This document shows positions 3,313 through 61,101 of a stretch of 64,000 nucleotides of DNA, piece after piece. Every line of letters begins with the position of its first letter. Positions within the stretch are counted from its first letter, which is position 1. Source of the DNA: Xanthobacteraceae bacterium (GTDB taxonomy: Bacteria > Pseudomonadota > Alphaproteobacteria > Rhizobiales > Xanthobacteraceae). Below the pieces are notes generated by a model, which was not told the origin of the DNA, searched no databases, and worked only from the letters and a program-made list of their open reading frames with translations. Made by a program: the position numbers and the translations under genes. Where the stretch lies: assembly GCA_035472475.1 (NCBI GenBank), contig DATIPA010000119.1, forward strand, positions 330 to 64,329, written 5' to 3'.

Positions 3313-3339
3313 GAGCTGCCTCCTTGATTCGTCGATTTG

Positions 3340-3768
3340 TCAGCGTCCGGTCCAGCTCTGCCACATGCCGAGCTCGAACACGGCCAAATTGGCGGAGCGC
3401 AGGATCCCACTTGCGGTTGTCATCACGGCGGTCGGTGGAACGCTTTGTGGCTTAACAGGAACATATTGCTGGCCGGCTTCGACCTGGGCCGAATAGACGT
3501 TGCAGGCGGCGGCCATCAGCGCCTGCACGGCCTGCGGGGTGAGCACATCGATCGAACCCGCCGCGAGCCCGCGCTCGACCTCGGCCGCGAGCCGCAGCGC
3601 CGCGCTCGACACGTTCACCGCGTCCCGCAACAGGCCCTCAGGGGCGGCGGCCGATTTGGCAACCGGCTTCGCGGCAGCAGCTTTCAGGGCGCTGGCTTTA
3701 GGCGGACGCTTTGGCGGCACCACTTTTCGACCGCTGCCACGCGCTGCCGAAGTCCTAGGCGACGACAT
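3340..3768 (-). CDS. Hypothetical protein with a Lys/Ala/Pro-rich N-terminus
   Basis: 142-aa ORF with strong GC3 bias in frame and GGAGAGGA upstream of ATG 3768. It overlaps the stop of the upstream Rieske ferredoxin gene by 14 nt. No family recognised. Confidence 0.55.
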   Translation of the reverse strand: MSSPRTSAARGSGRKVVPPKRPPKASALKAAAAKPVAKSAAAPEGLLRDAVNVSSAALRLAAEVERGLAAGSIDVLTPQAVQALMAAACNVYSAQVEAGQQYVPVKPQSVPPTAVMTTASGILRSANLAVFELGMWQSWTGR

Positions 3769-4126
3769 AGAGATCCTCTCCGCGCTGCACGACCTGATAC
3801 TTGCGCAGCTTGAGGCTGCGGTCCGACACGCATTCGCCGGTCTTCATGTCGTATTCGTAGCCGTGCCAGGGACAGACGAAGTGCTGCTCGTCTTCGGAGA
3901 AATACAGCCCGCGTGAAGTCTGATCGGGCATGATGCGCTCTTCGACCTTGGCGATGATGAGGCCCTCGCACGCCGGCCCACCTCGGTGAAGGCAGTAATT
4001 GCTGTAGGCGTAGTACTTGCCCCTGTCGCGGAAGATCCCGACCTCGGTATTGCCGAGGAACACGATCCGGCGATCGCCATCCTTGAATTCCGACGCTTTG
4101 CCGACGAGCTTCTCCCGTTCCGCCAT
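3755..4126 (-). CDS. Rieske [2Fe-2S] ferredoxin-like protein
   Basis: C-terminal 123 aa of ORF 3755..4450 starting MAEREKL. Motifs CLHRGG and CPWHGYEY. The upstream extension of the ORF is Arg/Pro-rich and looks non-coding. Confidence 0.8.
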   Translation of the reverse strand: MAEREKLVGKASEFKDGDRRIVFLGNTEVGIFRDRGKYYAYSNYCLHRGGPACEGLIIAKVEERIMPDQTSRGLYFSEDEQHFVCPWHGYEYDMKTGECVSDRSLKLRKYQVVQRGEDLYVVA

Positions 4127-4266
4127 TCCTCTCGTTCTCCCTTGGCGAATCCGCGCCGGCCACCGCGCGACGCGATTTTCGCGCAATTTGCGCTTTCCGG
4201 GATGGCAAAGCAACCGTCGCGCGGGCATGCGCAACATGCACTCGGGCGGTCCCGAAGAATGGCGAA

Positions 4267-5076
4267 CTAGATCAGATCCGGATTTTGCGGCCCGTCGTAC
4301 TCGTCGCTGCAGAACGGGCCGCCCTGGAACCACTCGGCAATCGGATCCGTCGTAAGCTTGGCCTGCGCGGCCAGCGCTTCGTCGCGAAAATCCTCGCTCT
4401 TGCCTTGCGGACGGTAGCCGTGGCGGAACGCCGCCTCGTTGTCCCACCACCCGCGCGCATTGTCCGATACGCCGAAAAAGATCTCGTAGCGGATGTCCGG
4501 GTGCTCAAGCCCGATGCGCACCAATTGCACCAGGTCCTCGGGCTTGAGCCAGATCGACAATCGGCGCCGGTCGGCTGGAATATCCGTGAGGTTACCGATC
4601 CGAATGCAGGTCACGCGCAGTCCGTGCTTGAACGCGTAGAGCGCTGCCACCGCTTCGCCGAACGCCTTGCTCATGCCGTAGCGCGAATCCGGGCGGACCG
4701 GGTCGTTGACTCCGATGCGGCGGCCGCGCGGATAGAAGCCGACCGCGTGGTTCGAGGACGCAAACACCACGCGCTCGACGTGATGCCGGCGCGCGCTCTC
4801 GAACAAATTGTAGGTGCCGACGATGTTGGATTGCAGCATCGCGTCCCAGGGCGCCTCGCCCGAGATGCCGCCGAGATGCACGATCCCGTCGACGCCGGCC
4901 ACCGCCTCGTCGAGAGCTTTGGCGTCGGCGAGATCGGCTTCGACAAAATGCTCGTCATTGCGAAGATCGGCTGGCCGCTTGAGATCGCTCAGGCGCAGCT
5001 CATAGACGCTCTTGAGCAGGCTGCGCAGCCGCGTGCCGATCCCGCCGGCCGCGCCCGTGATCAGGACCGTTTGCAT
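4267..5076 (-). CDS. NAD-dependent epimerase/dehydratase family oxidoreductase, uronate-dehydrogenase (Udh)-like
   Basis: Start at ATG 5076 (MQTVLITGAAGGIGTR, Rossmann GxxGxxG). IVHLGGIS, FASSNHAVGFYP, YGMSKAFGE and GWWDN resemble Agrobacterium Udh as recalled. Confidence 0.75.
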   Translation of the reverse strand: MQTVLITGAAGGIGTRLRSLLKSVYELRLSDLKRPADLRNDEHFVEADLADAKALDEAVAGVDGIVHLGGISGEAPWDAMLQSNIVGTYNLFESARRHHVERVVFASSNHAVGFYPRGRRIGVNDPVRPDSRYGMSKAFGEAVAALYAFKHGLRVTCIRIGNLTDIPADRRRLSIWLKPEDLVQLVRIGLEHPDIRYEIFFGVSDNARGWWDNEAAFRHGYRPQGKSEDFRDEALAAQAKLTTDPIAEWFQGGPFCSDEYDGPQNPDLI

Positions 5077-15100: not shown

Positions 15101-16099
15101 TCAGGGGATTAACACCATCGAGCCTGTGTTGCTCCTGGATTCGATCTCGCGGTGCGCCGCGGCGGCTTCGCTCAGTGGGAACGTACGGCTGATCTCGATC
15201 GTCAGCGCCCCCTTCTGCACGAGGTCGAACAGTTCGGCGGCGGCGGTCCGCATGGTCGCAACATCGCCGATGTAGCTCGAGAGCCCCGGCCGGCAGACCG
15301 AGAGCGACTTCGGCGCAAGGTGCAGGAGCTCGATCGGCGGCACGTGGCCGGACGCGTTGCCGTAGTTGACCGCCTTGCCGAACGGCCGGATGCAGGCGAA
15401 CGATTTGAGGAACGTATCCTTGCCGACGCCGTCGAACACGGCCGCGACACCCCCAGGCGCGATCTTGCCAACCACCTCGACGAAATCGATCTCGCGATAA
15501 AGGATCGTGTGCTCGCAGCCATGCTGCTCGGCGACCTTGGCCTTGTCGCGCGAGCCGGCCGTACCGATGACGCTCGCCCCGAGATGCTTCGCCCATTGGA
15601 CGAGGAGGAGACCAACGCCGCTTGCGGCCGCGTGGATCAGGATCGTGTCCCCAGGCTGAGGTCGGTGGATGCGATTGATGATCAGCGATGCGGTAAAGCC
15701 CTTCACCATCATGGCGGCGGCCTGCTGTTCGGAAAAACGCGGCGGCAGCTTGATCAGGCGCTCGGCAAAGACGTTGCGTTCCTCCGCATAAGCGCCGGTG
15801 TCCTCATAGAACTCGCCGCGCATGCCGGCATAGACGACGCGGTCGCCGGGCTTGACCTCGGTGACGCCGGGCCCGACCGCTTCCACCACGCCGGCCGCCT
15901 CATTGCCAAGCACGAGCGGAAATCGCGGCGGCCGCGCCAGGTAGAAGCCGCCGCGCCGGACGTTTACATCCGAATAATTGATCCCGACCGCGGTGTGGCG
16001 AATGCGCGCCTGGCCCGGTCCCGGCGGCGGAACCTCGATGTCTTCCCAGCGCATCACATCGGGCGTGCCGTTGGCGTGAATGCGGATTGCTTTGGGCAT
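15101..16099 (-). CDS. NADPH:quinone oxidoreductase / zinc-type alcohol dehydrogenase family (Qor-like)
   Basis: 332-aa ORF with an MDR-superfamily pattern (IRHTAVGINYSDVNVRRG...AAASGVGLLLVQWAK). Confidence 0.85.
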   Translation of the reverse strand: MPKAIRIHANGTPDVMRWEDIEVPPPGPGQARIRHTAVGINYSDVNVRRGGFYLARPPRFPLVLGNEAAGVVEAVGPGVTEVKPGDRVVYAGMRGEFYEDTGAYAEERNVFAERLIKLPPRFSEQQAAAMMVKGFTASLIINRIHRPQPGDTILIHAAASGVGLLLVQWAKHLGASVIGTAGSRDKAKVAEQHGCEHTILYREIDFVEVVGKIAPGGVAAVFDGVGKDTFLKSFACIRPFGKAVNYGNASGHVPPIELLHLAPKSLSVCRPGLSSYIGDVATMRTAAAELFDLVQKGALTIEISRTFPLSEAAAAHREIESRSNTGSMVLIP

Positions 16100-16120
16100 C
16101 TTTCAAACCGTCAGTCCATT

Positions 16121-16207
16121 GTCATGGCGGGGCTTGCCCCGGCCATCCACATTTTTCCTATTGATTGCATAAATCGCGTCGATGCCCGCGACAAGCGCGG
16201 GCATGAC
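16121..16207. repeat. REP-like intergenic element made of two inverted GC-rich hairpins
   Basis: Hairpin 1 at 16124-16146 (ATGGCgGGG-CUUGC-CCCgGCCAT). Hairpin 2 at 16182-16204 (ATGCCCGCG-ACAAG-CGCGGGCAT, 9 bp perfect). Hairpin 2 is roughly the reverse complement of hairpin 1. Confidence 0.5.
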
Positions 16208-16231
16208 CGGCAAGGATCTAGTCGCCCTGCC

Positions 16232-17560
16232 CTACTCCGCCGCGATCCGCAGCGCGCCGGTTGGGTTCTTGGAGGCGCGCATCTCCTCCGAATAGGCGCG
16301 CAGCCAGTCGAGCGCCGACGAGCTTGCGAAATCGCCGCCGCGCGCACCCTGATAGGTCTCGGGATTGTCGACGCCGGGGGGCACGATCCCTTCCATGTGG
16401 GCCTGCACGGCACGCAAGATGCGCCGGCGGGTGCGCGTGATCATCAGGTCGCTGATCGCGAGATTCTCGTGCTCGTGATCGACGATCCCGCCCATGCTTT
16501 CGGTGATCGCCTGATCCTGCAGATGGACGCCGTCAATTCCGGTATAGCTGATGTTGCGCGCCTGCTGGTCGCGATCCATCAGGTAGTCGTTCTCCTTGTT
16601 GGCCTTCAGGCGCCAGCGGCCGAACCAGCTGGTGTCGCTTTCCGCATACATGTGCGGCAAGACCGGCGCCATGCCGGGAATCGGGCTGCCGTCCTTCATC
16701 TTGCGCAAGCCCGGCGCGTTCTTCTTCCACGCCGCGTGCACGAACATGGTGTGGGTATCGTCCATCGGCACCCAGGCGCGCGCGACCACGTGATCGCGGA
16801 AATGCCCGTCGGGCGGAATCGTCCAGAACGGAAACATGAAGTGCGCGAAGCGCCAGTAGATCTCGCCTGGCGCGCCGGGCCGGTAGGCCGAATACATAGT
16901 GCCCCAGTCGGTGTCGGCGACGTGATACTCGGGCGCGCGGTTGGCGAGCGCATAGCGCCCAAGGTGGCCGGGCTCGGTGTCCTCGACCTCTACGCCGCCC
17001 ATGTGCAGGAAGCCGAGATGGGAGGTATCGATGTCGCCTTCGAGCGCCTGCAGATAACTGCACTCGCGCTGGACCATGAAAAGGTTGCGCTCGCTGTCGT
17101 CGGCGATCATGACCGATTCGAACATCGGCGGCGGCGGCGGTTCCTTGCGGGCGCCCATGTAGGTCCAGATCAGGCCGTTGCGCTCCGCGGTCGGATAGGC
17201 CTTGGCGGTGATCTTGTTGGGAAACGCCTGGTGCTTGGGAACGTTCGGCATGTCGAGACAATTGCCGTCGACGTCGAACATCCAGCCGTGGTACGCGCAG
17301 CGCAACCCATCTTTCTCGTTGCGGCCGAAGAACAAGGAGGCGCAGCGGTGTGGGCAGCGATGGTCGAGCACACCGACCCGGCCGGCGCGATCGCGAAATG
17401 CGATCAGCTGCTCGCCCAACAACATGAGCCGCATCGGCGGCCCATTGGCCGTCAGCTCGGCGGACAACGCGGCGGGAACCCAGTACTCCCGCATGAAGTT
17501 GCCCATTGGAGTTCCGGGCCCAACCCGACTGAGCAGCTCGCCCTCGGCTCGTGTGGTCAT
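16232..17560 (-). CDS. Rieske [2Fe-2S] non-heme-iron ring-hydroxylating oxygenase, alpha subunit (paralog of 66..1361)
   Basis: Real gene is the 442-aa C-terminal part of ORF 16232..18466, starting MTTRAEGELL at ATG 17560. Rieske motif CPHRCASL...CAYHGW. Confidence 0.85.
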   Translation of the reverse strand: MTTRAEGELLSRVGPGTPMGNFMREYWVPAALSAELTANGPPMRLMLLGEQLIAFRDRAGRVGVLDHRCPHRCASLFFGRNEKDGLRCAYHGWMFDVDGNCLDMPNVPKHQAFPNKITAKAYPTAERNGLIWTYMGARKEPPPPPMFESVMIADDSERNLFMVQRECSYLQALEGDIDTSHLGFLHMGGVEVEDTEPGHLGRYALANRAPEYHVADTDWGTMYSAYRPGAPGEIYWRFAHFMFPFWTIPPDGHFRDHVVARAWVPMDDTHTMFVHAAWKKNAPGLRKMKDGSPIPGMAPVLPHMYAESDTSWFGRWRLKANKENDYLMDRDQQARNISYTGIDGVHLQDQAITESMGGIVDHEHENLAISDLMITRTRRRILRAVQAHMEGIVPPGVDNPETYQGARGGDFASSSALDWLRAYSEEMRASKNPTGALRIAAE

Positions 17561-17671
17561 GCGCGTCTCCCGTTGCGTTTCTCGTTTTGATTGTAACCCG
17601 GTTGGAGCCTGTGCGTAATCCGGGGTAAGGAATATCTGATCCCGGATTTCATCCGGGCTACAGGTAAAAGC

Positions 17672-18607
17672 ATGGTTCAGAACTACGACATCGTCATCGC
17701 CGGCGGGGGTCTCGCCGGACTGACCGCGGCCGTCACGGCGGCACGGCTCGGCCGCAAGACGCTGGTACTCACCGGCGACGTCATTGGCGGACAACTCCTG
17801 AGCATCGAAAAGATCGAGGGCTTTCCCGGATTTCCGGACGGCGTCCCCGGTTACGATCTCGCCCCAATGACGCAGGAGGAAGCCGCAACCGCCGGCGCCG
17901 AATTCACCGCGGCCGAACTCAAAAACCTCACCCCCGACGCAGGCGGCTGGCGGCTGGCAACCGGCGAAGGCGAGGTTGCCGCCCGCGCCGTGGTGCTGGC
18001 GACCGGCTCGTCGCTGCGCGAGCTCGACGTGCCCGGCGAAGCGCGCCTGCGCGGCCAGGGCGTGAGCCATTGCGCGAGCTGCGATGCGCCATTGCTGCGC
18101 GACAAGATCGCCGTCGTCGTAGGAGGCGGCGATTCCGCCATGCAGGAGGCGCTGACCTTGGCGCAACACGTCAAGGAGGTCGCGATACTGACCCACGGCA
18201 CCGGCCTCGCCGGCCAGACGAGCTTTCGCGAGCGCGTGACGCAAAATCCGAAGATCAAGGTGCGGCCGCAGATCGAGGTGACGGAGATCCTCGGCGAGGC
18301 CAAGGTCACGGGCGTGCGCATGCGTGATATGTCGGGCGGCGCCGTGACAGATCTCGCTGCCGACGCGGTGTTTGTCTACACTGGCCTTCAACCAAATACC
18401 GCATTCCTCGATGGCCGGATCAAACTTGGCCCTGGGGGCGGAATTCCGACCGACGAGTGGATGCACACGGAGCTGATTGGCGTTTGTGCCGCCGGAACGG
18501 TTCGCGCCGGATCAGCTTGTCGGGCGGCCAGTTCGGCAGGCGACGGCGCCGCGGCCGCAATCGCGGTTGATCGGTACTTGACCGACGGCAGTTGGCGGCG
18601 AAATTAG
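17672..18607 (+). CDS. Thioredoxin-disulfide reductase-like FAD-dependent pyridine nucleotide-disulfide oxidoreductase
   Basis: 311-aa ORF. N-terminal GGGLAGL FAD motif, redox-active CASC in GVSHCASCDAPLL (compare E. coli TrxB GVSACATCDG) and a second Rossmann VVGGGDSAMQEA. Confidence 0.8.
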   Translation: MVQNYDIVIAGGGLAGLTAAVTAARLGRKTLVLTGDVIGGQLLSIEKIEGFPGFPDGVPGYDLAPMTQEEAATAGAEFTAAELKNLTPDAGGWRLATGEGEVAARAVVLATGSSLRELDVPGEARLRGQGVSHCASCDAPLLRDKIAVVVGGGDSAMQEALTLAQHVKEVAILTHGTGLAGQTSFRERVTQNPKIKVRPQIEVTEILGEAKVTGVRMRDMSGGAVTDLAADAVFVYTGLQPNTAFLDGRIKLGPGGGIPTDEWMHTELIGVCAAGTVRAGSACRAASSAGDGAAAAIAVDRYLTDGSWRRN

Positions 18608-18632
18608 CGCGACGGAATGAGAGGAGACCGCA

Positions 18633-20267
18633 ATGGCGGAACGACTGACGGTCCTCAATCCAACCGGATACCCGCCCAAGGTCGTGGGCAAGCGGCTCGC
18701 GCCGCGACCGCAGAGCCTCGACGGCAAGACGCTCTATCTGGTCGATTGCCTGTTCGACAACTCCGAAGCGTTCATGGATCAGATGCGGCGCTGGTTCGCC
18801 GAGCACCTACCCACCGTCAACACCCGCATGATCAAGCCGCGCGAGAGCTGGGTCGACGACCCGGACATGCGCGCCAAGGTCGCGGCCGACGGCGACGCCG
18901 CCATATTGGGTGTCGGACTTTGAAGCACCTGTAGCCCCACGGTCGTGGGGCTCGCCATGGCGCTGGAGCAGGCCGGTGTGCCGTCGGTCGCGCTCCATAC
19001 CCACGTGTTTGCGCGGCTTGCGCAATCGGTGGCGCGCGCCAACGGGATGCCGCGCACGCGCCAGGCCTATGTTCCGCAGCCGATCGTCGATCTTTCGCCC
19101 GAGCAGCTGCGCGGCTACATCGACGGCGCCGATCCGGTCTCGCGCCGCCCCTTTATGCAGGAAGTGATCGAGGCGCTGACGAGGCCGCTCGACGAAGACG
19201 ACCTCAAAGGTCTCACGTTCGAACGCTCGACGCCGCGGCTGCTCGAACCTGACACCGAAGACAACCTCCAGAAGCTGTTCATCGAGAACAACTGGACGGA
19301 CTTCCTGCCCGTCATTCTGCCGACCGAGGAACGGGTCGCCGCCATGCTCAAGGGCACGAGCCATCCGCCCGACAAGGTGGTGGGCCGGCTGCGCCCGACC
19401 TCGTTCCGCGAATTCTGGGAGCTCACGGTCGAGAAGGTCGCCGTCAACGCCGTCATGGCCGGTGCCAAGCCGGAGTATCTGCCCGTGATCCTGGCGCACG
19501 CGGCAAGCGGTGTCACCGCACGCTCATCGAGCACGACCTCGCTCGCGATGATCAGCCTGGTCAACGGTCCGATCCGCAACGAGATCGGCATGAGTTCGGG
19601 GATCGGCGCGATGGGTCCCTACAATCACGCCAACGTCACCATCGGTCGCGCCTACAATCTCCTCTCGATCAACGGCCAGGGCGGATCGGTGCCGGGTGAC
19701 ACCTACATGGGCACCCTCGGCAACGCGTTGAACTACAGCGCGACCTTTGCGGAAGCCGAGGAGCGCAGTCCGTGGCAACCCTTCCACGTGCAGAAGGGTT
19801 TCAAGCCGACCGACAGCACGGTCAGCATCTTCTTCGGCGGGCGCTACACCGCCTCGGGCTTCGGGCCGCGCGCGACCTGGAAGGAGAAGATGATCCGCTG
19901 CCTGACCTCGATCGATCACAACCAGGGGCCGCTGTTGGTGATGGACCCGATCGTCGCTCGCCTGTTCGTCGATCTCGGCTTTGACACCAAGGAAAAGCTG
20001 ATCGACTGGTGTGCCCAGAACGCCCAGATGCCAGCGCGCGACTATTGGGACGACCAATGGGTGCAGACGCTGACGCATCCGCTCGCGATTGCCGGCGTTG
20101 AGCCTTTTGCCAGCAAGCTCAAAGCCAGGCCTGACGAGATGGTGAAATTGTTCGAGCCGCACGACATCTCAATCGTGGTCGCCGGCGGCGAAACCCAGGG
20201 CGCCTGGAAGATGATTGGCGGCGCCTATCGGGGCAAGGCCACGGTCTCGGTCGATGCCTGGCGGTGA
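18633..20267 (+). CDS. Candidate selenoprotein (in-frame UGA at 18921-18923, U-S-T-C motif). GrdB/PrdB-like or UGSC-like N-terminal redox domain fused to a domain of unknown function
   Basis: ORFs 18633..18923 and 18945..20267 share a frame and are separated only by one TGA. GAGGAG SD precedes ATG 18633. There is no SD before GTG 18945. A SECIS-like hairpin follows the TGA. Confidence 0.6.
18933..18952 (+). promoter_or_regulatory. SECIS-like stem-loop (putative selenocysteine recoding signal)
   Basis: AGCCCCA-CGGUCG-UGGGGCU: a 7-bp perfect stem starting 9 nt after the UGA. The loop contains GGUC closed by C:G. The UGA-to-loop distance is 16 nt. Confidence 0.55.
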
Positions 20268-20374: not shown

Positions 20375-21376
20375 ATGCACAATCGGAATGTCAGTTTGAT
20401 ATGGGCGACAGCTGCCGCACTCTTTGTTGTGGCGGGTGGCGCGATCAGCGCCTCTGCCGACACCTACCCGAGCCGCCCGATCAAGATCATCGTGCCGTTC
20501 GCGGCCGGCACCTCCACCGACATCACGGCGCGCCGTGTCGGCGACGGCATGGCGCCGCTGCTGGGCCAGCCGTTTGTGGTCGAAGCCAAGGGCGGCGCCG
20601 GTGGAACGATTGGAACCGACCTCGTGGCAAAGTCTCCGCCGGACGGGTACACGCTCGTTCTCGGCAGCATCGGTACCCATGCCTTCAACGTCAGTCTCTA
20701 CAAGGCGCTGTCCTATGATCCGCTGCGGGACTTCGCTCCGGTGACCCGCCTCGTGTACGGCGGCTTCAACACGCTGTTGGTGAACCCGGCGCTGCCCGCC
20801 AACAATCTCACCGAATTCGTCGCGCTTGCGAAGGCACGCGATGCCGCTGGCAAACCTCTGACGTTCGGTTCCGCGGGAGTAGGCTCAGTCGGCCACCTCC
20901 TGGTGGAGCTTCTCAAGCAAGCGACCGACATCAAGGCCCTGCACGTGCCCTACAAGGGATCGTCGCTGATCGTCGCCGACGTCATGGGCGGGCACGTGGA
21001 TTTCTTCATCGCGGCGCCGTCGATCGCGATCCCGCAGGTGACCGGCAAGACCTTGAAGGCGATCGCCATCGACGCACCGGAGCGTTCGCCCTATCTGCCC
21101 GGTGTCGCGACCATGCGGGAGGCCGGCATCAACAACGTCGAGGCGCAGATCTGGCTCGGATTGTTCGCGCCCGCCGGAACGCCGCCCGATGTGATCAACC
21201 AGTTGCACGCGGCGGCGTTGCGGGTGTTGGCCACCGACAAGGTCAAAACGGAGTTTGACCGCGATGGCCTCACCATCGTGACCGACCAGAGCCCCGACGC
21301 GTTTCGCAAGGTCGTTGCCGCCGACATCACCAAGTGGGCCGCCGTCGTCAAGGCGGCAGGCATTGTGCCGGAATAG
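20375..21376 (+). CDS. Bug family tripartite tricarboxylate transporter substrate-binding protein (TctC-like)
   Basis: Start at ATG 20375 (MHNRNVSLIWATAAALFVVAGGAISASA signal peptide). YPSRPIKIIVPFAAGTSTD is typical of the Bug/TctC family. Confidence 0.85.
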   Translation: MHNRNVSLIWATAAALFVVAGGAISASADTYPSRPIKIIVPFAAGTSTDITARRVGDGMAPLLGQPFVVEAKGGAGGTIGTDLVAKSPPDGYTLVLGSIGTHAFNVSLYKALSYDPLRDFAPVTRLVYGGFNTLLVNPALPANNLTEFVALAKARDAAGKPLTFGSAGVGSVGHLLVELLKQATDIKALHVPYKGSSLIVADVMGGHVDFFIAAPSIAIPQVTGKTLKAIAIDAPERSPYLPGVATMREAGINNVEAQIWLGLFAPAGTPPDVINQLHAAALRVLATDKVKTEFDRDGLTIVTDQSPDAFRKVVAADITKWAAVVKAAGIVPE

Positions 21377-21404: not shown

Positions 21405-21791
21405 ATGATTAAACCGATCGAGTATGCGGACGCCTCGCGCGACGTGCGCGCCGTGTTCGACGACATCAAGAAGACCCGTAACGTTCCCGACGTGAACAAC
21501 TTCTGGAAATACCTCGCGCACGATCCGGTCGGCCTCAAGCGCACCTGGGAGAGCGTCAAGGAGGTGATGGCGCCCGGCGCCATCGATGCGCTCACCAAGG
21601 AGATGATCTACCTCGCGGTCAGCGTCACCAACGGCTGCGGCTATTGCATCGCGAGCCACGGTGCGGCCGCCCGCAAGGCCGGCATGACCGAAGCCATGTT
21701 CGGCGAGCTGATGGGGGTCGTCGGCATGGCGAACGAGACCAACCGGCTAGCGAACGGCTACCGGGTGCCGATCGATCCGGCGTTCGAATAG
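21405..21791 (+). CDS. Carboxymuconolactone decarboxylase family protein (AhpD-like, CxxC)
   Basis: 128 aa from ATG 21405. AhpD-type motif NGCGYCIASH. Confidence 0.85.
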   Translation: MIKPIEYADASRDVRAVFDDIKKTRNVPDVNNFWKYLAHDPVGLKRTWESVKEVMAPGAIDALTKEMIYLAVSVTNGCGYCIASHGAAARKAGMTEAMFGELMGVVGMANETNRLANGYRVPIDPAFE

Positions 21792-21883: not shown

Positions 21884-23239
21884 ATGCCCATGATGAAGCT
21901 TGGACTGTTCTTCGAAGGCTGCGGCCATCACATCGCGGCGTGGCGCGATCCGGAGGTCGATGCGCACGCCAAGCAGTCGCTCGCCCACTACGTCGAGATT
22001 GCGCGGCTCGCTGAGCGCGGCAAGTTTGATCTTCTGTTCACCGCCGATACCAACGCGACGTTCGGCCCGGATGATGTCGAAGCCTGGACCCGCACCACAG
22101 CGGCCTCGCGGCTCGAGCCGATTACGCTGCTGGGCGCGCTTGCGGCCGTCACCAGCAGGATCGGGCTCGTCGCCACCGCCACCACGACCTACTTCGAGCC
22201 GTTCCACGTCGCGCGCTTTTTTGCGTCACTCGACCAGATCAGCGGCGGCCGCGCCGGTTGGAATCTCGTGACCTCGTCTGCCGCCGCCGAGGCTTACAAC
22301 TTTGGTCGCGAACAGCACGCCGGCCATGCCGACCGCTACGCACGGGCGCACGAGTTTGCCAAGGTGGTGCTCGGTCTGTGGGATAGCTGGGAGGACCATG
22401 CGGTCATCGCCGACAAACAGAATGGCCTCTATCTCGACCGCGACAAGCTGCACTTCCTCAACCACAAGGGTCAGCACTTCGCGGTGCGCGGTCCGCTGAC
22501 GGTGCACCCCTCACCGCAAGGCCATCCTGTGATCGTGCAGGCCGGACAGTCCGAGGACGGCCGCGAGCTCGCGGCCGAAACTGCGGAGGTCATCTTCACG
22601 GTGCAGCAGGACCTCGCCGCGGGGCGCGAGTTCTACAACGACGTCAAGCGCCGCGCCGCCGCTTACGGCCGTCCGCCCGAGGCCATCAAGGTGATGCCCG
22701 GCGTGATGACGGTGATCGGGCGGACGCGCGCGGAGGCCGAGGACAAATATGGCCGGTTGCAGGATCTGATCGCGCCCGAGATCGGCATCAAGATGTTGTC
22801 GACCTACCTTGGGGTGGATCTGACGCGACACTCGCTCGACGGCCCGGTTCCGGAACCGAAGTACACCAGCCAGGAAGTCGGCCGCGTCAAGGTCATGGTC
22901 GATCTTGCCCGGCGCGAGAACCTGACGATCCGCCAGCTCTACAAGCGCGTCGTCGGCCAGCGCGCCCATCGCGTGGTGATTGGCACGCCGGGTGACATCG
23001 CGGATGCGCTCGAGCAATGGTTCACGGCCGGCGCGGCCGACGGCTTCAACATCCTGCCGCTCACGTTCCCGCGCGGGCTCGAGGAGTTGGTTGACTTCGT
23101 CATTCCGGAACTGCAGCGGCGCGGGCTGTTCCGGACCGAGTACGAAGGCCGCACGCTACGGGAAAATCTCGGCCTGCCGCACCCCCTCAATCGCTGGTCG
23201 GCGGATAGGCAGCGAGCGGCGCTACGGCACGTCAGCTGA
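21884..23239 (+). CDS. LLM class flavin-dependent monooxygenase (NtaA/SnaA/DszA family)
   Basis: 451-aa ORF. MKLGLFFEGCGHHIAAWRDP and overall layout are typical of the nitrilotriacetate-monooxygenase component A family. Confidence 0.85.
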   Translation: MPMMKLGLFFEGCGHHIAAWRDPEVDAHAKQSLAHYVEIARLAERGKFDLLFTADTNATFGPDDVEAWTRTTAASRLEPITLLGALAAVTSRIGLVATATTTYFEPFHVARFFASLDQISGGRAGWNLVTSSAAAEAYNFGREQHAGHADRYARAHEFAKVVLGLWDSWEDHAVIADKQNGLYLDRDKLHFLNHKGQHFAVRGPLTVHPSPQGHPVIVQAGQSEDGRELAAETAEVIFTVQQDLAAGREFYNDVKRRAAAYGRPPEAIKVMPGVMTVIGRTRAEAEDKYGRLQDLIAPEIGIKMLSTYLGVDLTRHSLDGPVPEPKYTSQEVGRVKVMVDLARRENLTIRQLYKRVVGQRAHRVVIGTPGDIADALEQWFTAGAADGFNILPLTFPRGLEELVDFVIPELQRRGLFRTEYEGRTLRENLGLPHPLNRWSADRQRAALRHVS

Positions 23240-23799: not shown

Positions 23800-24678
23800 T
23801 CATCGCCGCTTCATGGTCGGATCGAGCGCGACCCGCATTGATTCGCCGAGGGCATTGAAGGCAAGCGCGGTGAACAGGATGGCGAGGCCGGGCGCGTACA
23901 TCTGTTCGGGCGCGATCTCGATATAGTTGTACGCGCGTGCCAGCATGCCGCCCCAGCTTGCCGCCGGCGGCTGCACGCCAAGCGACAGGAAGCTCAGGCT
24001 TGCCTCGGCGAGCAGCGCGATCGCGAGCATGAGCGTGACCTGGACAATCACAGGCTGGATGGCGTTCGGCACGATGTGCCTGATGATGATGTGGCTGGTG
24101 CTGGCGCCGAACCCGCGCGCGGCGTCGACGTAGAGCGCGCTCTTCACCACCAGGGTCTGGGCGCGCACCAGTCTCGCCAGCACCGGCGCGAACACAAAAC
24201 CGACCGACAGCATCGCGTTGGTCAGTCCGATCCCGAGCGCACCGGTAACCGCAATCGCCAGCACGATCGGCGGGAACGACAGAAGCGCGTCGATGAAGCG
24301 GCTGGTTGCCTCGTCGATCCAACCTCCGAGGAACCCGATGACGAGGCCAACCGGAACGCCGAGCGCGACGCCGACGCCGACCGCCAGGAACGAGGCATAG
24401 AGAGAGTTGGGTGCGCCCCAGATCAGCCGGCTGAGCACGTCGCGACCAAGATCGTCGGTGCCAAGCCAGTGTGCGGCGCTCGGCGGCAGCAGCAGCTGGG
24501 TCACGTCCTGATCGACCGGCGAATACGGCGCCAGCACCGGGGCGAAGATCGAAACAATCACCATCAACCCGAGAAACGCAATGCTCAGCACGGCGCGCAG
24601 GTCGCGGCGCATCCAGCGCAGAACCTTGATGGCGCGCGAGCGCCGCGGCGGTGCCGGAACGTCGACGACGGCGGTCAT
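23800..24678 (-). CDS. ABC transporter permease (DppC/OppC-like)
   Basis: 292-aa polytopic ORF with a 4-nt ATGA overlap with the upstream permease gene. Confidence 0.9.
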   Translation of the reverse strand: MTAVVDVPAPPRRSRAIKVLRWMRRDLRAVLSIAFLGLMVIVSIFAPVLAPYSPVDQDVTQLLLPPSAAHWLGTDDLGRDVLSRLIWGAPNSLYASFLAVGVGVALGVPVGLVIGFLGGWIDEATSRFIDALLSFPPIVLAIAVTGALGIGLTNAMLSVGFVFAPVLARLVRAQTLVVKSALYVDAARGFGASTSHIIIRHIVPNAIQPVIVQVTLMLAIALLAEASLSFLSLGVQPPAASWGGMLARAYNYIEIAPEQMYAPGLAILFTALAFNALGESMRVALDPTMKRR

Positions 24679-25628
24679 GCTTCCGCCGCCCGCGGATCAA
24701 GTAGCGCGTTGAGCACGTCGACCGCCAGATTGACCAGGATGACGATGACGACCAGCACCAGCACCACACCCTGCACCACCGGGAAATCTTTGTTGAGGGC
24801 CGAGGTGGCGACGAGACTGCCGACGCCGGGAATCGCGAACACCGCTTCGATCACGACCGCACCTGAGAACAACCGATTAACCTGGAGGCCGAGCAACGTC
24901 AGCATCGTCACGCTGATGTTGCGCAGGCCGTGCTTCCAAAGCACCGCACCAGCGCCGAGACCTTTTGCGCGCAGCGTGCGGATATATTGCGAGTTGAGCA
25001 CCTCGATCAGGGCGCTGCGCACCTGGCGGGCAAGCTCGGCGATCACTCCTACCGCAAGCGCAACCGCCGGAAGGGTCGCGTGCATCAGTGCGCCCCATGG
25101 ATCGGCTGTGATCGACACCGCGCCCGTGGTCGGGAACCAGTGGTATTTGAGCGACAGCGTCGCGACCAGGAGCATGGCGAGCCAGAAGCTCGGAAGCGCT
25201 ACACCAAGCGACGCAAGCCCGGTGATAAGCGAGTCAAGCTTCGTGCCGACCCGGGTGGCCGCGAGCACACCGAGCGAAACTCCGACCAGGCCCGCGATCA
25301 CGAGCGCATAGACCGCGATCAGGATCGTGTTCGGAAGCCGGTAGAGGATCAGCTCCGACACCGGCTGGCTTGTCAGAAGCGAGCGTCCGAGATTTCCCTC
25401 AAGGGCGTGCAGAAGCCACACCCCGTATTGAACTACGAACGGCTGATCGAGCCCGTAGAGCTGCCTGATCTCGGCGATGCGCTGTTCCGACGCGTAATCG
25501 CCGGCGAGCACGACCGCGGGATCGCCGGGCACCAGCTGCAGCAGCGAGAACACCACGAAGGTCGCAAACACAATGATCGGCAGCAGTTGCCACAGACGGC
25601 GGCCGATCAGGCGTGGAAGTTTGCCCAT
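24675..25628 (-). CDS. ABC transporter permease (DppB/OppB-like)
   Basis: 317-aa polytopic ORF with a typical N-terminus MGKLPRLIGRRLWQLLPIIVF. Confidence 0.9.
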   Translation of the reverse strand: MGKLPRLIGRRLWQLLPIIVFATFVVFSLLQLVPGDPAVVLAGDYASEQRIAEIRQLYGLDQPFVVQYGVWLLHALEGNLGRSLLTSQPVSELILYRLPNTILIAVYALVIAGLVGVSLGVLAATRVGTKLDSLITGLASLGVALPSFWLAMLLVATLSLKYHWFPTTGAVSITADPWGALMHATLPAVALAVGVIAELARQVRSALIEVLNSQYIRTLRAKGLGAGAVLWKHGLRNISVTMLTLLGLQVNRLFSGAVVIEAVFAIPGVGSLVATSALNKDFPVVQGVVLVLVVIVILVNLAVDVLNALLDPRAAEA

Positions 25629-25637
25629 TACTGGTCC

Positions 25638-27200
25638 TTACGCAGACAGCCAGACCTCGGTGAACTTCGGCGTTGCCGGCAGGCCGTCGGTGTAGTTTTG
25701 CACTTTGGGGCTCATCACGCCGATCGCTGGCGCGATGAATTGCACCATCTGCAACGCGTTTTCGACCACGAACCGCTGCAGCTTGGCAAACGCCGCCTTG
25801 CGCACGCTCTGCTCCGGCGTGTCCATGGTGGCGTCGAGGAGTTCGCGGAAGCCCGGCAGCTCGACCCGGCCGGCGTTGCGCAGCGCGTCTTTGCCGAACA
25901 GATTTTCGTAGAACTGGCTCGGATCGGCGAACGGCGACGACGGGCTGATGAACATCGCGCCCTTCCTGTCGATCATGAACGCCTGCACGGCCTGCTGCGG
26001 AGACAGCGCCGTCAGCTTGACGCGGATGCCGGCCTTGGCGAGCTGCGAGATGATCAGCTCCTGGCGCTGCATCGCGGTCTGGTCGGGCCAACCGATCGAC
26101 TCGATCTCGATCCCGTCGGGATGGCCGGCTTCGGCCAGTAGCTTCTTCGCCTTGTCGAGATCGTACGTGTAGTAGTTCGCGGTCGCCGGATCGCACGCCC
26201 ACAGCGCCTTCGACAGGATTGTGCTGGACACTTGCCCGAGGCCGAGCGCCGCCACCTTGTTGATCTCGTCGCGATTGATCGCGTAGTTCAACGCCTGCCG
26301 AACGCGCACGTCATCCAGCGGCGGGCGCGAGTAGTTGATGAACGTGCCGTAGGGCACCAGCGACGGAAAAACTTTCGTCACCACGTTGGGAGATCGATCG
26401 GCGACCGCCTTCTGCTGCGGCTGTAGGTTGAGGGCCACGTCGGTCTCGCCGGCGATCACCGTGCGAGCAACCGTATTGAGCTCGCTGATGATGCGCATGT
26501 TGATGCCGTCTAGGTACGGCAGGCCCGGCCTCCAGTAGTTCTCATTGCGGGTGAGCACGAAACTGTCGTTGTCCTGCCAGCTCACAAACTTGAATGGGCC
26601 GGTTCCCACAGGATTGCGGTCGACGTTCGGTCCTTTCTCCTGGATCGATTTGGGCGAGACCATCAATCCGACTCGGTTGGTCAAAATGGTCGGAAGGCCG
26701 ACGTTGGGCTTGTTCAGCCTGATGGTCACCTGGTTGGGCCCGGTGACCTCGACCTTGTCGACGGTGCCGAGGTCAGATTTCACGTTTGAGCGTGGATCGT
26801 TCTTGTAGCGCTCGAGGTTGAACTTGACCGCTTCGGCATTGAGCGGCGAACCATCGTGAAAATTCACGCCTTCGACCAGATCGAGCACGAGCGTCTTCAG
26901 ATCCGTGAACTTCCAGGTCTTGGCGAGGCCGGGCTTGAGCTCGAGCGTGAGCGGTTCGAAGTCGACCAGCGCATCGAACACGCCGTAGAGGACGTTGAAG
27001 TCCGTGAGGTTTCGCCCGGTCATGGGGTCGACCGAGCCGGGATTGTAGGGCATCGCCACCCGCAGAATGCCGCCCTTGCGCGGTGTTCCTTGCGCGACTG
27101 CGCCGCCCGGCAGCAACAAGGCTCCGGCGGCCGCCGCAGTCGCCTTCATAACGTCGCGGCGGTCCAGCATGACCTGATCGATGTCCCTCGTCATCTCCAT
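25638..27200 (-). CDS. ABC transporter substrate-binding protein (peptide/nickel family 5), copy 1
   Basis: 520-aa ORF with a Tat-like signal (DRRDVMKATAAAAGALLLP) and family-5 SBP sequence. Confidence 0.9.
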   Translation of the reverse strand: MEMTRDIDQVMLDRRDVMKATAAAAGALLLPGGAVAQGTPRKGGILRVAMPYNPGSVDPMTGRNLTDFNVLYGVFDALVDFEPLTLELKPGLAKTWKFTDLKTLVLDLVEGVNFHDGSPLNAEAVKFNLERYKNDPRSNVKSDLGTVDKVEVTGPNQVTIRLNKPNVGLPTILTNRVGLMVSPKSIQEKGPNVDRNPVGTGPFKFVSWQDNDSFVLTRNENYWRPGLPYLDGINMRIISELNTVARTVIAGETDVALNLQPQQKAVADRSPNVVTKVFPSLVPYGTFINYSRPPLDDVRVRQALNYAINRDEINKVAALGLGQVSSTILSKALWACDPATANYYTYDLDKAKKLLAEAGHPDGIEIESIGWPDQTAMQRQELIISQLAKAGIRVKLTALSPQQAVQAFMIDRKGAMFISPSSPFADPSQFYENLFGKDALRNAGRVELPGFRELLDATMDTPEQSVRKAAFAKLQRFVVENALQMVQFIAPAIGVMSPKVQNYTDGLPATPKFTEVWLSA

Positions 27201-27294
27201 CCTCCCATGGCGTCAATCAATCCGGCGTCACAGTCGCCGTCGGATCCTCGTCTGGCCTGAACCATAGCCCGCGCGCACAATGGGCGCACGCCGT

Positions 27295-28845
27295 TCAGGC
27301 AGAGGCATCAAGCCACACCTCGGTGAACTTTGGCGTGCCCGGCAGGTTGTCGACCAGATTACGGACCTTGGGGCTCGTAACAATGATGTTGGGCGAGATG
27401 AACTGTGGAACCTGCAGCGCCTGCTCGATCACAAAGCGCTGGAGCTTGGCGAAGGCCGCCTTACGAGCGAGCTGATCCTGCGCCGCCATGGTGGCGTCGA
27501 CGAGCTCGCGATAGCCCGGAACTTCGATCTTGGCGGCGTTGCGCAGCGCGTCCTTGCCGAACATCGCGTCGTAAAACTGACTCGGATCCGGGTAACCGCC
27601 GGTCGGGCTGATCAGCATGGCGCCCTTCTTTTCCAGCAGGAAGTTCTGCATCGCTTGCCCGGGCGCGACCGGGGTCAGTTTCACGCGGAAGCCAGCCTTT
27701 GCGAGTTGCGATACGATCAGCTCCTGACGCTGCATCGCGGTCTGATCCGGCCAGCCGAAGGCGTCGAGGTCGAGGCCGTTCGCGTATCCAGCCTCGGCCA
27801 GCAGCCGCTTGGCCTTGTCCGGGTCGTGGCCGTAGTAGTTGATGGTGGTCTCGTCGCAAGCCCAATGCTGCTTGGGCAGAATCGCATTGGTCGGCTGACC
27901 GAGCCCGAGCACGATCACCTTGTTGATTTCCTCGCGATTGATCGCGTAGTTGAGCGCTTGCCGGACGCGCACATCGTCGAGCGGCGGTCGACCGTAATTC
28001 AGGAATATTCCGTAGAACGTCAGCGAGGGCCCGACGCTCACCGTCACGTTGGTCGAGCGATCCGCCACCGCCTTCTGTTGCGCCTGCATGTTGAGGACGA
28101 CGTCGGCCTCACCAGCGATCGCGGTGCGCAGCGCGGTGTTGAGCTCGTTGATGATGCGAATGTTGATGCCGTCGAGATAGGGCAAGCCCTGCTTCCGGTA
28201 CCTGTCGTTGCGCACGAGCGTGAAGCTGGCGTTGTCCTGCCAGTCGACGAACCGGAATGGTCCGGTCCCAACCGGCGTGCGGTCGATGTTCGGTCCCTTG
28301 TCCTGCACCGACTTGGGCGAAACCATGCAGCCGACCCGGTTGGTCAGGACGGTCGGAAGGCCGGCGTTCGGCTTGTTCAGGCGCAATGTGACCTGATTTG
28401 CGCCGGTGACCTCGATCTTGTCCAACGTGCCGAGATCAGGCTTCACATTGGAGCGCGGGTCGGTCTTGTAACGCTCCAGGTTGAACTCGACGGCCTCGGC
28501 GTTGAACGGCGTGCCGTCGTGGAAGCTCACGCCTTCGACGAGGTCCAACACGAGCGTGGTTGGATCGCTGAAGCTCCAAGACTTGGCCAAGCCGGGCTTG
28601 AGCGCGAGCGTCGCCGGCTCAAAGTCGATCAGCGCGTCGAACACCGCGTACAGGACATTGAAATCCGGCAGATTGCGGCCGGTCATCGGATCGACCGAGG
28701 CCGGATTGTAGGGCATTGATACCCGTAGGCTGCCGCCCTTGCGCGGTGTTGTTGCCGAGAACGCGCTGCGCGGCAACAGACCCGCGCTCGCCGCCGCTGC
28801 GCCTGCCTTTATGACCGTGCGCCGGTCTACCGTTGCGCCAACCAT
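27295..28845 (-). CDS. ABC transporter substrate-binding protein (peptide/nickel family 5), copy 2 (tandem paralog)
   Basis: 516-aa ORF, collinear and highly similar to 25638..27200 over its whole length. Confidence 0.9.
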   Translation of the reverse strand: MVGATVDRRTVIKAGAAAASAGLLPRSAFSATTPRKGGSLRVSMPYNPASVDPMTGRNLPDFNVLYAVFDALIDFEPATLALKPGLAKSWSFSDPTTLVLDLVEGVSFHDGTPFNAEAVEFNLERYKTDPRSNVKPDLGTLDKIEVTGANQVTLRLNKPNAGLPTVLTNRVGCMVSPKSVQDKGPNIDRTPVGTGPFRFVDWQDNASFTLVRNDRYRKQGLPYLDGINIRIINELNTALRTAIAGEADVVLNMQAQQKAVADRSTNVTVSVGPSLTFYGIFLNYGRPPLDDVRVRQALNYAINREEINKVIVLGLGQPTNAILPKQHWACDETTINYYGHDPDKAKRLLAEAGYANGLDLDAFGWPDQTAMQRQELIVSQLAKAGFRVKLTPVAPGQAMQNFLLEKKGAMLISPTGGYPDPSQFYDAMFGKDALRNAAKIEVPGYRELVDATMAAQDQLARKAAFAKLQRFVIEQALQVPQFISPNIIVTSPKVRNLVDNLPGTPKFTEVWLDASA

Positions 28846-28910
28846 GTGTTTCTCCCTTCCGGTCTCGTTTTGTTGTTTGGTCTTGACGTCATGAACGCGA
28901 CGTTGCGCGA

Positions 28911-29912
28911 TCAGTTGATGGCCGCTTTGCCCTCGCTCGTAGGCACCGCAGCCGATTGTCCAGCAAAATGGCAGGCCGCAAAATGGCCGGGCGTGATCTC
29001 ACGCCACTCCGGCTCGCGCGCCGAACATTCCGCCACCGCTAACGGGCATCTGGTGTGGAACCGGCAGCCGCTCGGCGGCGCCAGCGCGCTCGGAATCTCA
29101 CCCTGCAAAATGATGCGCTGCTTACTGCGCAGCCGCGCCGGCACGGGCTCCGGCTCGGCCGACATCAGCGCCTGCGTATAGGGATGCAGCGGGGTCGTCA
29201 TCAGCGCCTGCGCGGGACCCAGTTCGACCAGCTTGCCGAAATACATCACCGCCACCCGGTCGCTGACGTGGGCGACAACGCGCAGATCATGGCTGATGAA
29301 AACATAGGTGAGCGAAAACTCGCGCTGGAGCTCCGCGAACAGGTTGAGCATATCGGCCTGGATCGATACATCGAGCGCCGCCACGACTTCATCGCACACG
29401 ATCAGCCGCGGCTCGAGCACCAACGCCCGCGCGATATTGGCCCGCTGTTTCTGGCCGCCCGAGATCTCGTGCGGATAGCGACCCGCGAGCTCGGCCGAGA
29501 GCGCGACCCGGTCGAGCATGGCGAGCGCTTGCCTGTACCGATCCTGCGAGGATCCGATACCGGCGACGTCGAGCGGCTCGCGCACGCTTTCCAGGATTGT
29601 CATGCGCGGATCGAGCGCCGCGTTGGGATCCTGGAAGATGATCTGAAACCCGCGGCGATGACGCCGCAGCTCATGGGCATTGAGCGCAAACGGGTTTTCG
29701 CCGTCGTGCAGCACGCGCCCGCTCGTCGGCCGCACCAGGCATACGATGCAGCGTCCAAGCGTCGACTTGCCCGAACCGGACTCGCCGATGACGCCAAAAG
29801 TCTCGCCTTGCGCGACCCGAAATCCCACGCCGTCAACCGCGCGGATGAACTGATGGCGCTGGCGCGCCGGAAACGCGATCTCGAGTTCATCGACGGTCAG
29901 GATATCGCTCAC
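28911..29912 (-). CDS. ABC transporter ATP-binding protein (DppF/OppF-like)
   Basis: GTG 29912 overlaps the upstream stop (GTGA). Walker [10 protein letters not shown], signature SGGQKQR and a C-terminal oligopeptide-ABC domain. The longer ORF to 30761 is an out-of-frame extension over the upstream gene. Confidence 0.85.
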
Positions 29913-30949
29913 GATCCGGCTCCCGCCAGGACCAGCGCGTCGGCTCGCCGGCAGCGCACCTGGCGCTCGCCGCGGGCGACGAGTATCTGTGGCTCGCGGC
30001 AGGCCGCCTCGGCGTGGCTGCAGCGTGGACCAAATCGGCAACCGGTTGGCATTTCGCGCGGCGAGGGAACGCGTCCGGGAATCGACGGCAGCTTCGACTT
30101 GCGATGACGTTGCTGCGGCAGTGAACCGAGCAAGCCAGCCGTATAGGGATGCAGCGGCCGCGACAGGATGTCGTCGACCGGTCCATCCTCGACCACCTGC
30201 CCGGCGTACATGGTCAGCATTCGCGAGCAGCTTTCGGCCACGATCCCGAGGTTGTGGGTGATGAACAGGAGCGCCGTGCCGGTGCGTTGACTGAGGTCCT
30301 GCAACAAATCGACAATCTGCGCCTGGATGGTCACATCGAGCGCCGTGGTCGGCTCGTCGGCGATCAGCAGCCGCGGCTCGCACACCAGCGCCATCGCGAT
30401 CATCACCCGCTGCCGCATGCCGCCAGACAAGCTCATCGGATACATCGTCACGCAGTTGCGTGGCGACGGGATCCCGACCGCGGCCAGCGCCTCGACCGCG
30501 CGTTCGCGGGCCTCGCTTGCCGACACCGGGAAATGCGCGCGCACCGTTTCGGCGATCTGATGACCGACGGTGAACACCGGATCGAGCGCGCTCATCGGCT
30601 CCTGAAAGATCATGCCGATGCGGCGTCCGCGCACCCGGCGCATATCGGCCTCGCCGAATTGCACGAGGTCGCGACCCTCGAACAGAATCTGGCCGGTCCG
30701 ACGGCAGCCGCGCCGCGGCAACAACCCGAGGATCGAGAGCGCGGTGATCGATTTGCCGCAACCACTCTCGCCGACGACGCCGAGGGTTTCGCCCGGCATC
30801 ACAGCAAACGAAACGTCCGTGAGCACGGAAAACCAGTCAGATCCGTCGTTGAACGCGATTGACAGATTGCGCACCGACAACAGCGCTTCGCGGGCGGCCG
30901 GTGAGCCGCGCGTTTCCGCGCTCGGTGTTTCGAGTTGGGCCTGAACCAT
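29909..30949 (-). CDS. ABC transporter ATP-binding protein (DppD/OppD-like)
   Basis: 346-aa ORF with Walker A GESGCGKS and signature LSGGMRQR. Confidence 0.9.
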
Positions 30950-30961
30950 GCGAAGAATGTT

Positions 30962-41901: not shown

Positions 41902-42194
41902 GAACTCTCCTGGGCGCCGACGGTTAGAATGAAGGGCGTTCCGAACGCGCGGGCTGAAGGCCACGGGGACCTGCAGCGACTGCCAAACGGCAGGCCGGCG
42001 CGTAACCGAGCGGTCGGAACGATGGTTATTGTGGGTCGGCCGTGAAAGAAGCCTGCGCGCGGACTGATCCTCCTCGACGAGGACCCCGTTTGGCGTCCTC
42101 GGCCCGCGCGGACGGCTTCGACCTTGTCGATGGCTGCCCGAACCGGGGGGATATAGCCAACCACGCAAGCGTGGGCAAGGGCCGCGAGAGGCCG

Positions 42195-46528: not shown

Positions 46529-46604
<76 letters not shown>

Positions 46605-59208: not shown

Positions 59209-59424
59209 GGGCCATCATGGGGGCCCGCCGCTCGCATCCGGAGCACGCTGACCGGCACTCCCCGGAGGGCAATGTCGTATGCGCCCAACGGCCCCGGGAT
59301 GGAATATCTAAGCATCCTTCGGCACCTACATGGACTTATTTTCTTAATTTAACCGCACAGTTGCGCTTATTTAAAATAAAATTCTATTTATGGGGATCGG
59401 CCCTCCTCTTTGAGAGCAGCGATC

Positions 59425-60927: not shown

Positions 60928-60945
60928 ACTTCGGAGTAACTCATC

Positions 60946-61101
60946 ATGTCGCAACCGAACATCCGCGACGAACTGCGCAAAGCCCCGACCGAGCCGCTGC
61001 TGCCGATCGAAAAACAATTGATCGGCTGGAGCCTGGGGATCGGTGTCGCGCTGCTGGTCGTGCTTGCAGTCGTCAACCACTACTTCCCGGTGACGCTGTA
61101 A
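60946..61101 (+). CDS. Small (51-aa) single-TM hypothetical protein, below the ORF-track cutoff
   Basis: ATG 60946 with GGAG 9 nt upstream. Translation MSQPNIRDELRKAPTEPLLPIEKQLIGWSLGIGVALLVVLAVVNHYFPVTL, GC3-rich. Starts 19 nt after the YeiH-like stop. Confidence 0.4.
   Translation: MSQPNIRDELRKAPTEPLLPIEKQLIGWSLGIGVALLVVLAVVNHYFPVTL

Follow-up and report, generated by a model that had tools for sequence, protein, structure and literature searches.

The 64-kb stretch of DNA from a Xanthobacteraceae bacterium analysed here (contig DATIPA010000119.1; the whole stretch is called the window) carries on its plus strand a gene at 18633-20267 that is interrupted by an in-frame UGA and very probably encodes a selenoprotein of the UGSC family. 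Between the ATG at 18633-18635 and the terminal TGA at 20265-20267, the sole in-frame interruption is the TGA at 18921-18923 (plus strand), a candidate selenocysteine (Sec) codon on the basis of its conservation in relatives and of homologs with an aligned Cys. Read through this codon, the gene is complete, with 544 codons and a stop, and its product has 544 residues, ...AAILGVGL-U-STC-SPTVVGLAMALEQAGVPSVALHT..., with Sec as residue 97. The chain runs past the motif as ...GVGL-U-STC-SPTVVG..., and the segment spanning U97 reads ILGVGL-U-STCSPTVVGLAMALEQAGVPSVALHTHVFAR. U97 and C100 delimit a putative redox motif, U-S-T-C (18921-18932, plus strand). A Shine-Dalgarno-like GAGGAG (18621-18626, plus strand) precedes the start codon with a 6-nt spacer. 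The first-pass annotation, made from the letters of the DNA, had described both the single frame broken only at this TGA and the GAGGAG ahead of the ATG, and re-reading of the sequence and its translation confirms them. A hairpin of the bacterial selenocysteine insertion sequence (SECIS) type follows the UGA at 18933-18952 (plus strand), and a gene for a thioredoxin reductase (TrxR)-like flavoprotein (17672-18607, plus strand) ends 25 nt ahead of the start codon. Public gene calls cut the one gene into pieces of 96 and 436 aa.

Conservation of the in-frame UGA

A scan of one genome per species yielded 44 loci encoding relatives of the downstream open reading frame (ORF), from Alpha-, Beta-, and Gammaproteobacteria, Dehalococcoidia, Chloroflexia, Acidobacteriota, and Desulfatiglans. 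The aligned codon is present in 43 of these, to which the codon counts refer. TGA occupies this position in 42 of the 43, across at least five phylum-level groups, the sole departure being a TGC in a Hyphomicrobiaceae locus (L030). In each of the 42 loci, some 100 aa of conserved N-terminal sequence lie in frame with the TGA, and the frame is never shifted. Together, TGA, frame, and hairpin recur in 42 of the 43 independent loci, far more than chance would allow. Every relative that is 95-98% identical to the window keeps both the TGA and the hairpin. The motif itself varies among the related loci (USTC, UPGC, and UIGC), with only the U-x-x-C spacing held constant.

The family is large: the first database search returned more than 7,900 matches, and 4,349 representative clusters fall at E <= 1e-3. 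Among the 120 closest database proteins, 118 are 433-438 aa long and start at a Met 3′ of the motif; gene callers have therefore truncated all of them at one point. An exhaustive representative search recovered full-length, single-chain homologs of 535-570 aa that align end to end with the 544-aa product. In these chains, Cys is aligned to the UGA as CSTC (P0122, P0123, and P0156), CPGC (P0127), or CGSC (P0213), which bears out the first-pass expectation of single polypeptides with Cys at the UGA position, while in other full-length homologs (P0129, P0135, and P0142) the redox motif has been lost.

The N-terminal part of the protein (residues 7-160; 18651-19112, plus strand) matches the UGSC domain of Pfam, PF24696, with a predicted flavodoxin/Rossmann-like beta-alpha-beta fold that spans the UGA. 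At 95.2 bits (E = 6.4e-27), the match is well above the cut-off of 25; it covers positions 2-156 of the 172 in the profile and is unbroken across the stop at residue 97. The same family is matched by all 22 of 22 diverse full-length relatives, and the UGSC-motif family that the first-pass annotation had named for this locus proves to be the right one.

Immediately after the TGA, the Thr codons (ACC, ACA, ACT, and ACG) and Cys codons (TGT and TGC) of 27 distinct proteobacterial orthologs change only synonymously, and the codons following the TGA are therefore translated. Were the TGA a true stop, the locus would encode a 96-aa protein and a second one of 436-440 aa restarting at ATG 18957 or GTG 18945, whether or not the two assemble. 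Every public gene call makes this split, and a GGGG run 6-9 nt before ATG 18957 offers a possible weak ribosome-binding site. However, a single Pfam domain spans the stop, the Cys homologs are single chains, and the 11 codons that separate the TGA from ATG 18957 vary synonymously while their amino acids are conserved, and so are under protein-level constraint. Remote orthologs also lack a Met near the TGA, and the frame is unshifted in 42 loci, all of which makes two separate proteins extremely improbable. A sequencing or assembly error, or the mark of a pseudogene, has nothing in its favor beyond the internal stop itself. Against this, 42 independent assemblies and thousands of database fragments have the same codon, and both halves of the gene are under purifying selection, so that such an origin is vanishingly unlikely. 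The conservation of the TGA, the Cys homologs, the continuity of the Pfam domain, and the synonymous codons thus jointly argue very strongly against the two-gene, pseudogene, and sequencing-error explanations.

The SECIS-type hairpin and the Sec machinery

The hairpin begins 9 nt from the UGA and consists of an 8-bp stem capped by the apical loop GGUC (18941-18944), which starts 17 nt from the UGA. The 7-bp stem AGCCCCA/UGGGGCU (18933-18939 / 18946-18952) and its GGUC loop are present in the sequence as first described, and the pair C18940:G18945 lengthens the stem. With a folding energy of -15.1 kcal/mol (z = -4.1), the 20-nt hairpin is more stable than every one of 200 shuffles. The 76-nt surrounding region, which had been proposed for a SECIS check, is no more stable than its shuffles (z = -0.76), and only the 20-nt hairpin is significant. 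The published model of the bacterial SECIS (bSECIS) allows a loop of 3-9 nt with a G within its two initial positions, a stem of 4-16 bp, a distance of 16-37 nt from the UGA, and a minimum free energy of -7.5 kcal/mol or lower (PMC13188914). With its 4-nt GGUC loop, 8-bp stem, 17-nt spacing, and -15.1 kcal/mol, the present hairpin lies within all of these limits. At gathering thresholds across the window, Rfam finds no known RNA at the hairpin site, and no bacterial SECIS model is among its matches.

The stem has also been maintained by compensatory change. In an alignment of 31 sequences over 61 nt, 81.5% of the cells of the 8-bp stem are paired, as against 65.8% after column shuffling (none of 500 shuffles does as well) and 29-57% when the 3′ partner is slid by 1-3 columns. 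The covariation score is 0.45, compared with 0.08-0.18 for the slid partners. Among the 27 proteobacterial sequences, the four-fold-degenerate third positions of a Pro and a Val codon covary perfectly (CCC/GTG in 15, CCG/GTC in 10, and CCT/GTA in 2). The loop codons ACG GTC are invariant (27/27), as is the preceding Ser codon AGC (27/27), and the Gly codon is GGG in 25 of 27; four-fold-degenerate codons flanking the hairpin use three to five synonyms. In remoter phyla, a hairpin occurs at the same place with other sequences, its register being shifted by one base in Desulfatiglans. The bSECIS constraints, the covariation, and the stability together uphold the original reading of the hairpin as a SECIS element.

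The closest described counterpart is the SECIS of Escherichia coli fdhF, likewise a hairpin within the coding sequence a few nt 3′ of the UGA with a GGUC apical tetraloop. The loop of fdhF lies at +22 to +25, whereas that of the present gene lies at +21 to +24. The two differ in that the 8-bp stem here is perfect and without the bulged U of fdhF, and binding of SelB to the present hairpin is only predicted.

Genes for the Sec machinery stand beside the family gene in three related loci. Those given with bit scores were identified by NCBIfam models above curated cut-offs, and tblastn matches in the related loci were re-checked in the same way. In a Hyphomicrobiales metagenome-assembled genome (L010, 1-7335 of JAHFPN010000007), a TrxR-like gene is followed by two tandem selenoprotein genes (938-2566 and 2710-4338), each with the TGA and the same hairpin, and then by selA (582 bits) and selB (366 bits). 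In a second locus (L014, 4495-7365), the order is family gene, selD (497 bits), TrxR-like gene, and selA. In the third (L028), selB and selA (563 bits) lie on the opposite strand (1-1661), followed by the TrxR-like gene and the family gene; the selB of this locus is partial and was detected by tblastn only. The linkage in L014 and L028 hints that the protein is a main client of the Sec machinery in those genomes. In another related locus (L011, 2085-2181, minus strand), a 97-nt 'tRNA-Gly (tcc)' called by ARAGORN was considered as a tRNA-Sec and rejected. Although 97 nt is the length expected for tRNA-Sec, Rfam is empty there even at E = 1, and the call is in all likelihood spurious, lying within a coding region.

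The window itself is less favorable to the Sec reading: within its 64 kb there is no selA, selB, selD, or tRNA-Sec, its only tRNA being a tRNA-Ala, and tblastn with E. coli SelA, SelB, and SelD sequences finds no match in it. This absence would suit a UGA that is read through without Sec, for instance by near-cognate Trp or Cys insertion, in a host that lacks the machinery, or a gene that is a recently stranded relic. On the other side, the SECIS-type hairpin is kept by compensatory change, selA, selB, or selD lies beside the gene in three relatives, and the relatives 95-98% identical to the window all retain TGA and hairpin, which leaves read-through without Sec, or a relic, with a very small probability. 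There is likewise no sign of stop-codon reassignment, as genes of the window end in TGA and in TAG. It is thus very likely that TGA 18921-18923 is a Sec codon and that the gene is a genuine Sec-encoding member of the UGSC family. The UGA would be recoded by SelB and Sec-tRNA, recruited through the hairpin at 18933-18952 within the coding sequence. The case for Sec recoding, and for the part the hairpin would play in it, is a comparative one throughout.

The putative flavoprotein partner and the genomic context

The gene directly upstream (17672-18607, plus strand) encodes a 311-aa TrxR-like flavin adenine dinucleotide (FAD) flavoprotein with a C-A-S-C motif. The protein matches Pfam Pyr_redox_2 (8.7e-36) and NCBIfam TIGR01292, the latter at 254 bits, under the 343-bit equivalog cut-off. 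A TrxR-like gene adjoins the family gene in the window and in many related loci (L002-L004, L007, L009, L010, L014, L026-L028, L032, L047, L048, L052, L054, and L055), among them the closest relatives, Beta- and Gammaproteobacterial loci, and one Chloroflexia locus. Such a gene also lies beside two of the Cys homologs, P0213 (33% identity) and P0123 (54%). The TrxR-like flavoprotein is the probable electron donor of the selenoprotein.

Downstream, the gene is followed on the plus strand by Pfam-identified genes for a TctC-family solute receptor (about 20375-21376), a CMD/AhpD-like protein (about 21405-21791), and a luciferase-like monooxygenase (21884-23239). Only the closest relatives (L002, L003, L004, L007, and L052) share this order, and these neighbors are context only, without implied membership in the system. 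Elsewhere the neighbors vary, including TctC, SBP_bac_5, Peripla_BP_6, and NMT1 binding proteins, amidohydrolases, Rieske oxygenases, and a luciferase-like monooxygenase. With the TrxR-like gene set aside, neighbors across the loci give no clear indication of a substrate. Further downstream in the window (23800-30950, minus strand), there is an Opp/Dpp-type ATP-binding cassette (ABC) importer with two SBP_bac_5 binding proteins, permeases, and ATPases. At the locus of P0123 (L048), the Cys homolog directly follows an SBP_bac_5 gene and has a similar transporter set, and the shared context may be a clue to the class of substrate.

A different setting is seen in a JGI metagenome (3300049473; L050, 3571-13102), where two paralogs without Sec or Cys (e.g., P0135, 'GHMDTLGP') flank genes for two glycyl-radical enzymes of the PFL-like type and for a radical-SAM activase, a context unlike that of the aerobic proteobacterial loci. 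Upstream of the TrxR-like gene in the window, an 812-aa ORF without family match (15152-17590, plus strand) and a 744-aa ORF whose first ~330 residues have no match (16232-18466, minus strand) resemble shadow ORFs, or ORFs extended too far, in high-GC DNA. A Rieske/LigXa-like oxygenase encoded on the minus strand (~16235-17560), divergently from the TrxR-like gene, is probably what this region really codes for. The region at 55802-63838 encodes an assimilatory nitrite/sulfite reductase-like protein, a flavoprotein reductase, and a nitrate-reductase-like molybdopterin oxidoreductase with a BFD-like [2Fe-2S] domain; no in-frame TGA interrupts any of the genes in this region. The window appears to be chromosomal, given that it carries rpsA (40177-42168) and tRNA-Ala (46529-46604).

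Protein domains, proposed mechanism and known systems

The structure of the N-terminal domain was taken from a predicted model (m018a89f2cc05) of P0123, the closest full-length Cys homolog (54% identical), which has a predicted local distance difference test score (pLDDT) of 94.1 and a predicted template modeling score (pTM) of 0.93. In the model, beta and alpha elements alternate repeatedly and the motif comes just before helix 111-125, in agreement with the earlier placement of U-x-x-C at a strand-to-helix junction. Locally, it is best matched in the PDB by SIS/flavodoxin-like domains (3eua, probability 0.98); thioredoxins are absent from the top matches. A fold search of the full-length model against PDB and BFVD gives no match at E <= 1e-3.

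The remaining ~380 aa (19128-20264, plus strand) form a C-terminal domain of no described family. It carries the conserved motifs WTDxLPxxxPTE, VAVNAVMAG, VNGP, ANxxIGRA, and AENEE..PW and a terminal (V/I)DxWR (here VDAWR). No Pfam or NCBIfam model matches this domain in any of 22 diverse members, and a PDB sequence-profile search finds no relative of the protein, in keeping with the initial description of a C-terminal part of about 350 aa without recognizable family. The model of the window's own C-terminal domain (md21da9e9daaf) has a pLDDT of 93.5 and a pTM of 0.89, and the predicted fold is apparently an undescribed one. Searched alone, the domain has class I fumarate hydratase and the 'Toblerone-fold' cyclic amide hydrolases as its best fold matches, at E 8e-4 to 5e-2 with TM-scores of 0.16-0.24 and root-mean-square deviations of 12-18 Å; assignment to either class was rejected, as matches of this TM-score are too weak. 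The Toblerone-fold hydrolases comprise barbiturase and cyanuric acid hydrolase, and hydantoinase and amidohydrolase genes lie near some family members (L054 and L055). The concurrence of hydrolase-fold hints and such neighbors may be coincidence.

The recurrence of a TrxR-like neighbor with a C-A-S-C center points to an electron relay from NAD(P)H through the flavoprotein and a U97-C100 selenenylsulfide to a substrate. First, NAD(P)H would reduce the FAD and C-A-S-C center of the flavoprotein, which would then reduce the Se-S bond between U97 and C100. The resulting selenolate would reduce, or reductively cleave, a small substrate bound to the C-terminal domain, by a logic analogous to that of GrdB and PrdB, the Sec-containing B subunits of glycine reductase and D-proline reductase. 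This flavoprotein-driven reductase mechanism is put forward tentatively, with somewhat more doubt than confidence. A broader proposal, which is decidedly speculative, is that the TrxR-like protein and the long UGSC protein make up a new reductase, dependent on Se and driven by NAD(P)H, in aerobic bacteria of soil and freshwater, with a catalytic C-terminal fold that has no solved relative, and that in some genomes, those with sel genes beside it, this pair would be the chief reason for retaining the Sec machinery. If true, chemistry like that of GrdB and PrdB would take place outside anaerobic amino-acid fermentation.

Several observations count against the functional interpretation and the family assignment. 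The mechanism draws wholly on gene adjacency and analogy, and in many loci no TrxR-like gene lies within 3 kb. The members that have lost the motif suggest that the C-terminal domain may work without a redox center. The resemblance to GrdB and PrdB that the first-pass annotation had seen in the local sequence shrinks to a faint hint, with PrdB at E = 0.034 (13.6 bits, where the cut-off is 300) and GrdB at E = 0.064 in one relative. The NCBIfam equivalog model of the UGSC protein, NF041046, scores 67.6 bits against a cut-off of 125. This model matches 20 of the 22 relatives (best E 3e-24), and the score under the cut-off therefore places the protein in a related subfamily, apart from the classic short UGSC protein.

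Compared with known systems, the pair resembles the two-component disulfide relays of low-molecular-weight TrxR with thioredoxin and of AhpF with AhpC, in that a flavoprotein of TrxR architecture with a C-x-x-C center is encoded beside a U/C-x-x-C protein. It differs from them in that the flavoprotein falls short of the TrxB equivalog (254 vs 343 bits), no thioredoxin gene is adjacent, and the acceptor domain is predicted not to have the thioredoxin fold. With GrdB and PrdB (compared through TIGR01917, TIGR04483, and Pfam GRDB), the protein shares Sec in a U-x-x-C motif and faint local similarity near Sec, and a common logic, in which a selenolate nucleophile is recycled via a Se-S bond, is plausible. 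The grd operons also include a thioredoxin-reductase-type gene in their cluster. However, Pfam GRDB matches neither the window protein nor its 22 relatives, no GrdA/GrdE/PrdA-type partner is found among the annotated neighbors, and the present hosts are aerobic soil Proteobacteria, whereas GrdB and PrdB belong to amino-acid-fermenting anaerobes.

UGSC-containing selenoproteins have been known since 2007-2008 from Hyphomonas neptunium and metagenomes (PMC1976440, PMC2398784), and a UGSC/Unknown_1 fusion is already on record there. Reviews list the function of UGSC as unknown (PMC9312934, PMC13188914). The first-pass claim of an unannotated selenoprotein therefore holds for the Sec reading and the split public gene calls, while its novelty does not, since publications of 2007-2008 had already described the family, as well as a fusion to an unknown domain. 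The present gene brings no new recoding principle and no new selenoprotein family. Its significance lies first in annotation: the gene and thousands of public relatives are split into two bogus ORFs where there should be one selenoprotein, and genes for the long UGSC form abound in Xanthobacteraceae of soil and in other Proteobacteria. What is added are a conserved flavoprotein partner, sel-gene linkage in three loci, and confident models of the unclassified 380-residue domain, which together open the function to direct genetic and biochemical tests.

Judged by its sequence, the protein is a long-form member (USTC subfamily) of the UGSC family, which is itself already catalogued (PF24696, NF041046; reference ABI76733.1 of H. 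neptunium). Like that family, it has Sec in U-x-x-C at the same position and is often mis-called; NCBI names two truncated relatives of 435-436 aa 'UGSC family (seleno)protein'. The UGSC/Unknown_1 proteins of the Global Ocean Sampling survey, as depicted in Fig. S1A (PMC2398784), likewise join a UGSC domain to a conserved domain of unknown function, which may or may not be the one present here. A thioredoxin-like fold was suggested for UGSC by Zhang and Gladyshev in 2008 (PMC2398784), whereas the model obtained here is flavodoxin/Rossmann-like. The present protein further departs from the classic family in its motif, which is U-S-T-C and not the literal U-G-S-C, and in its 544 aa, which include a domain of ~380 aa beyond the 147-position NCBIfam and 172-position Pfam profiles.

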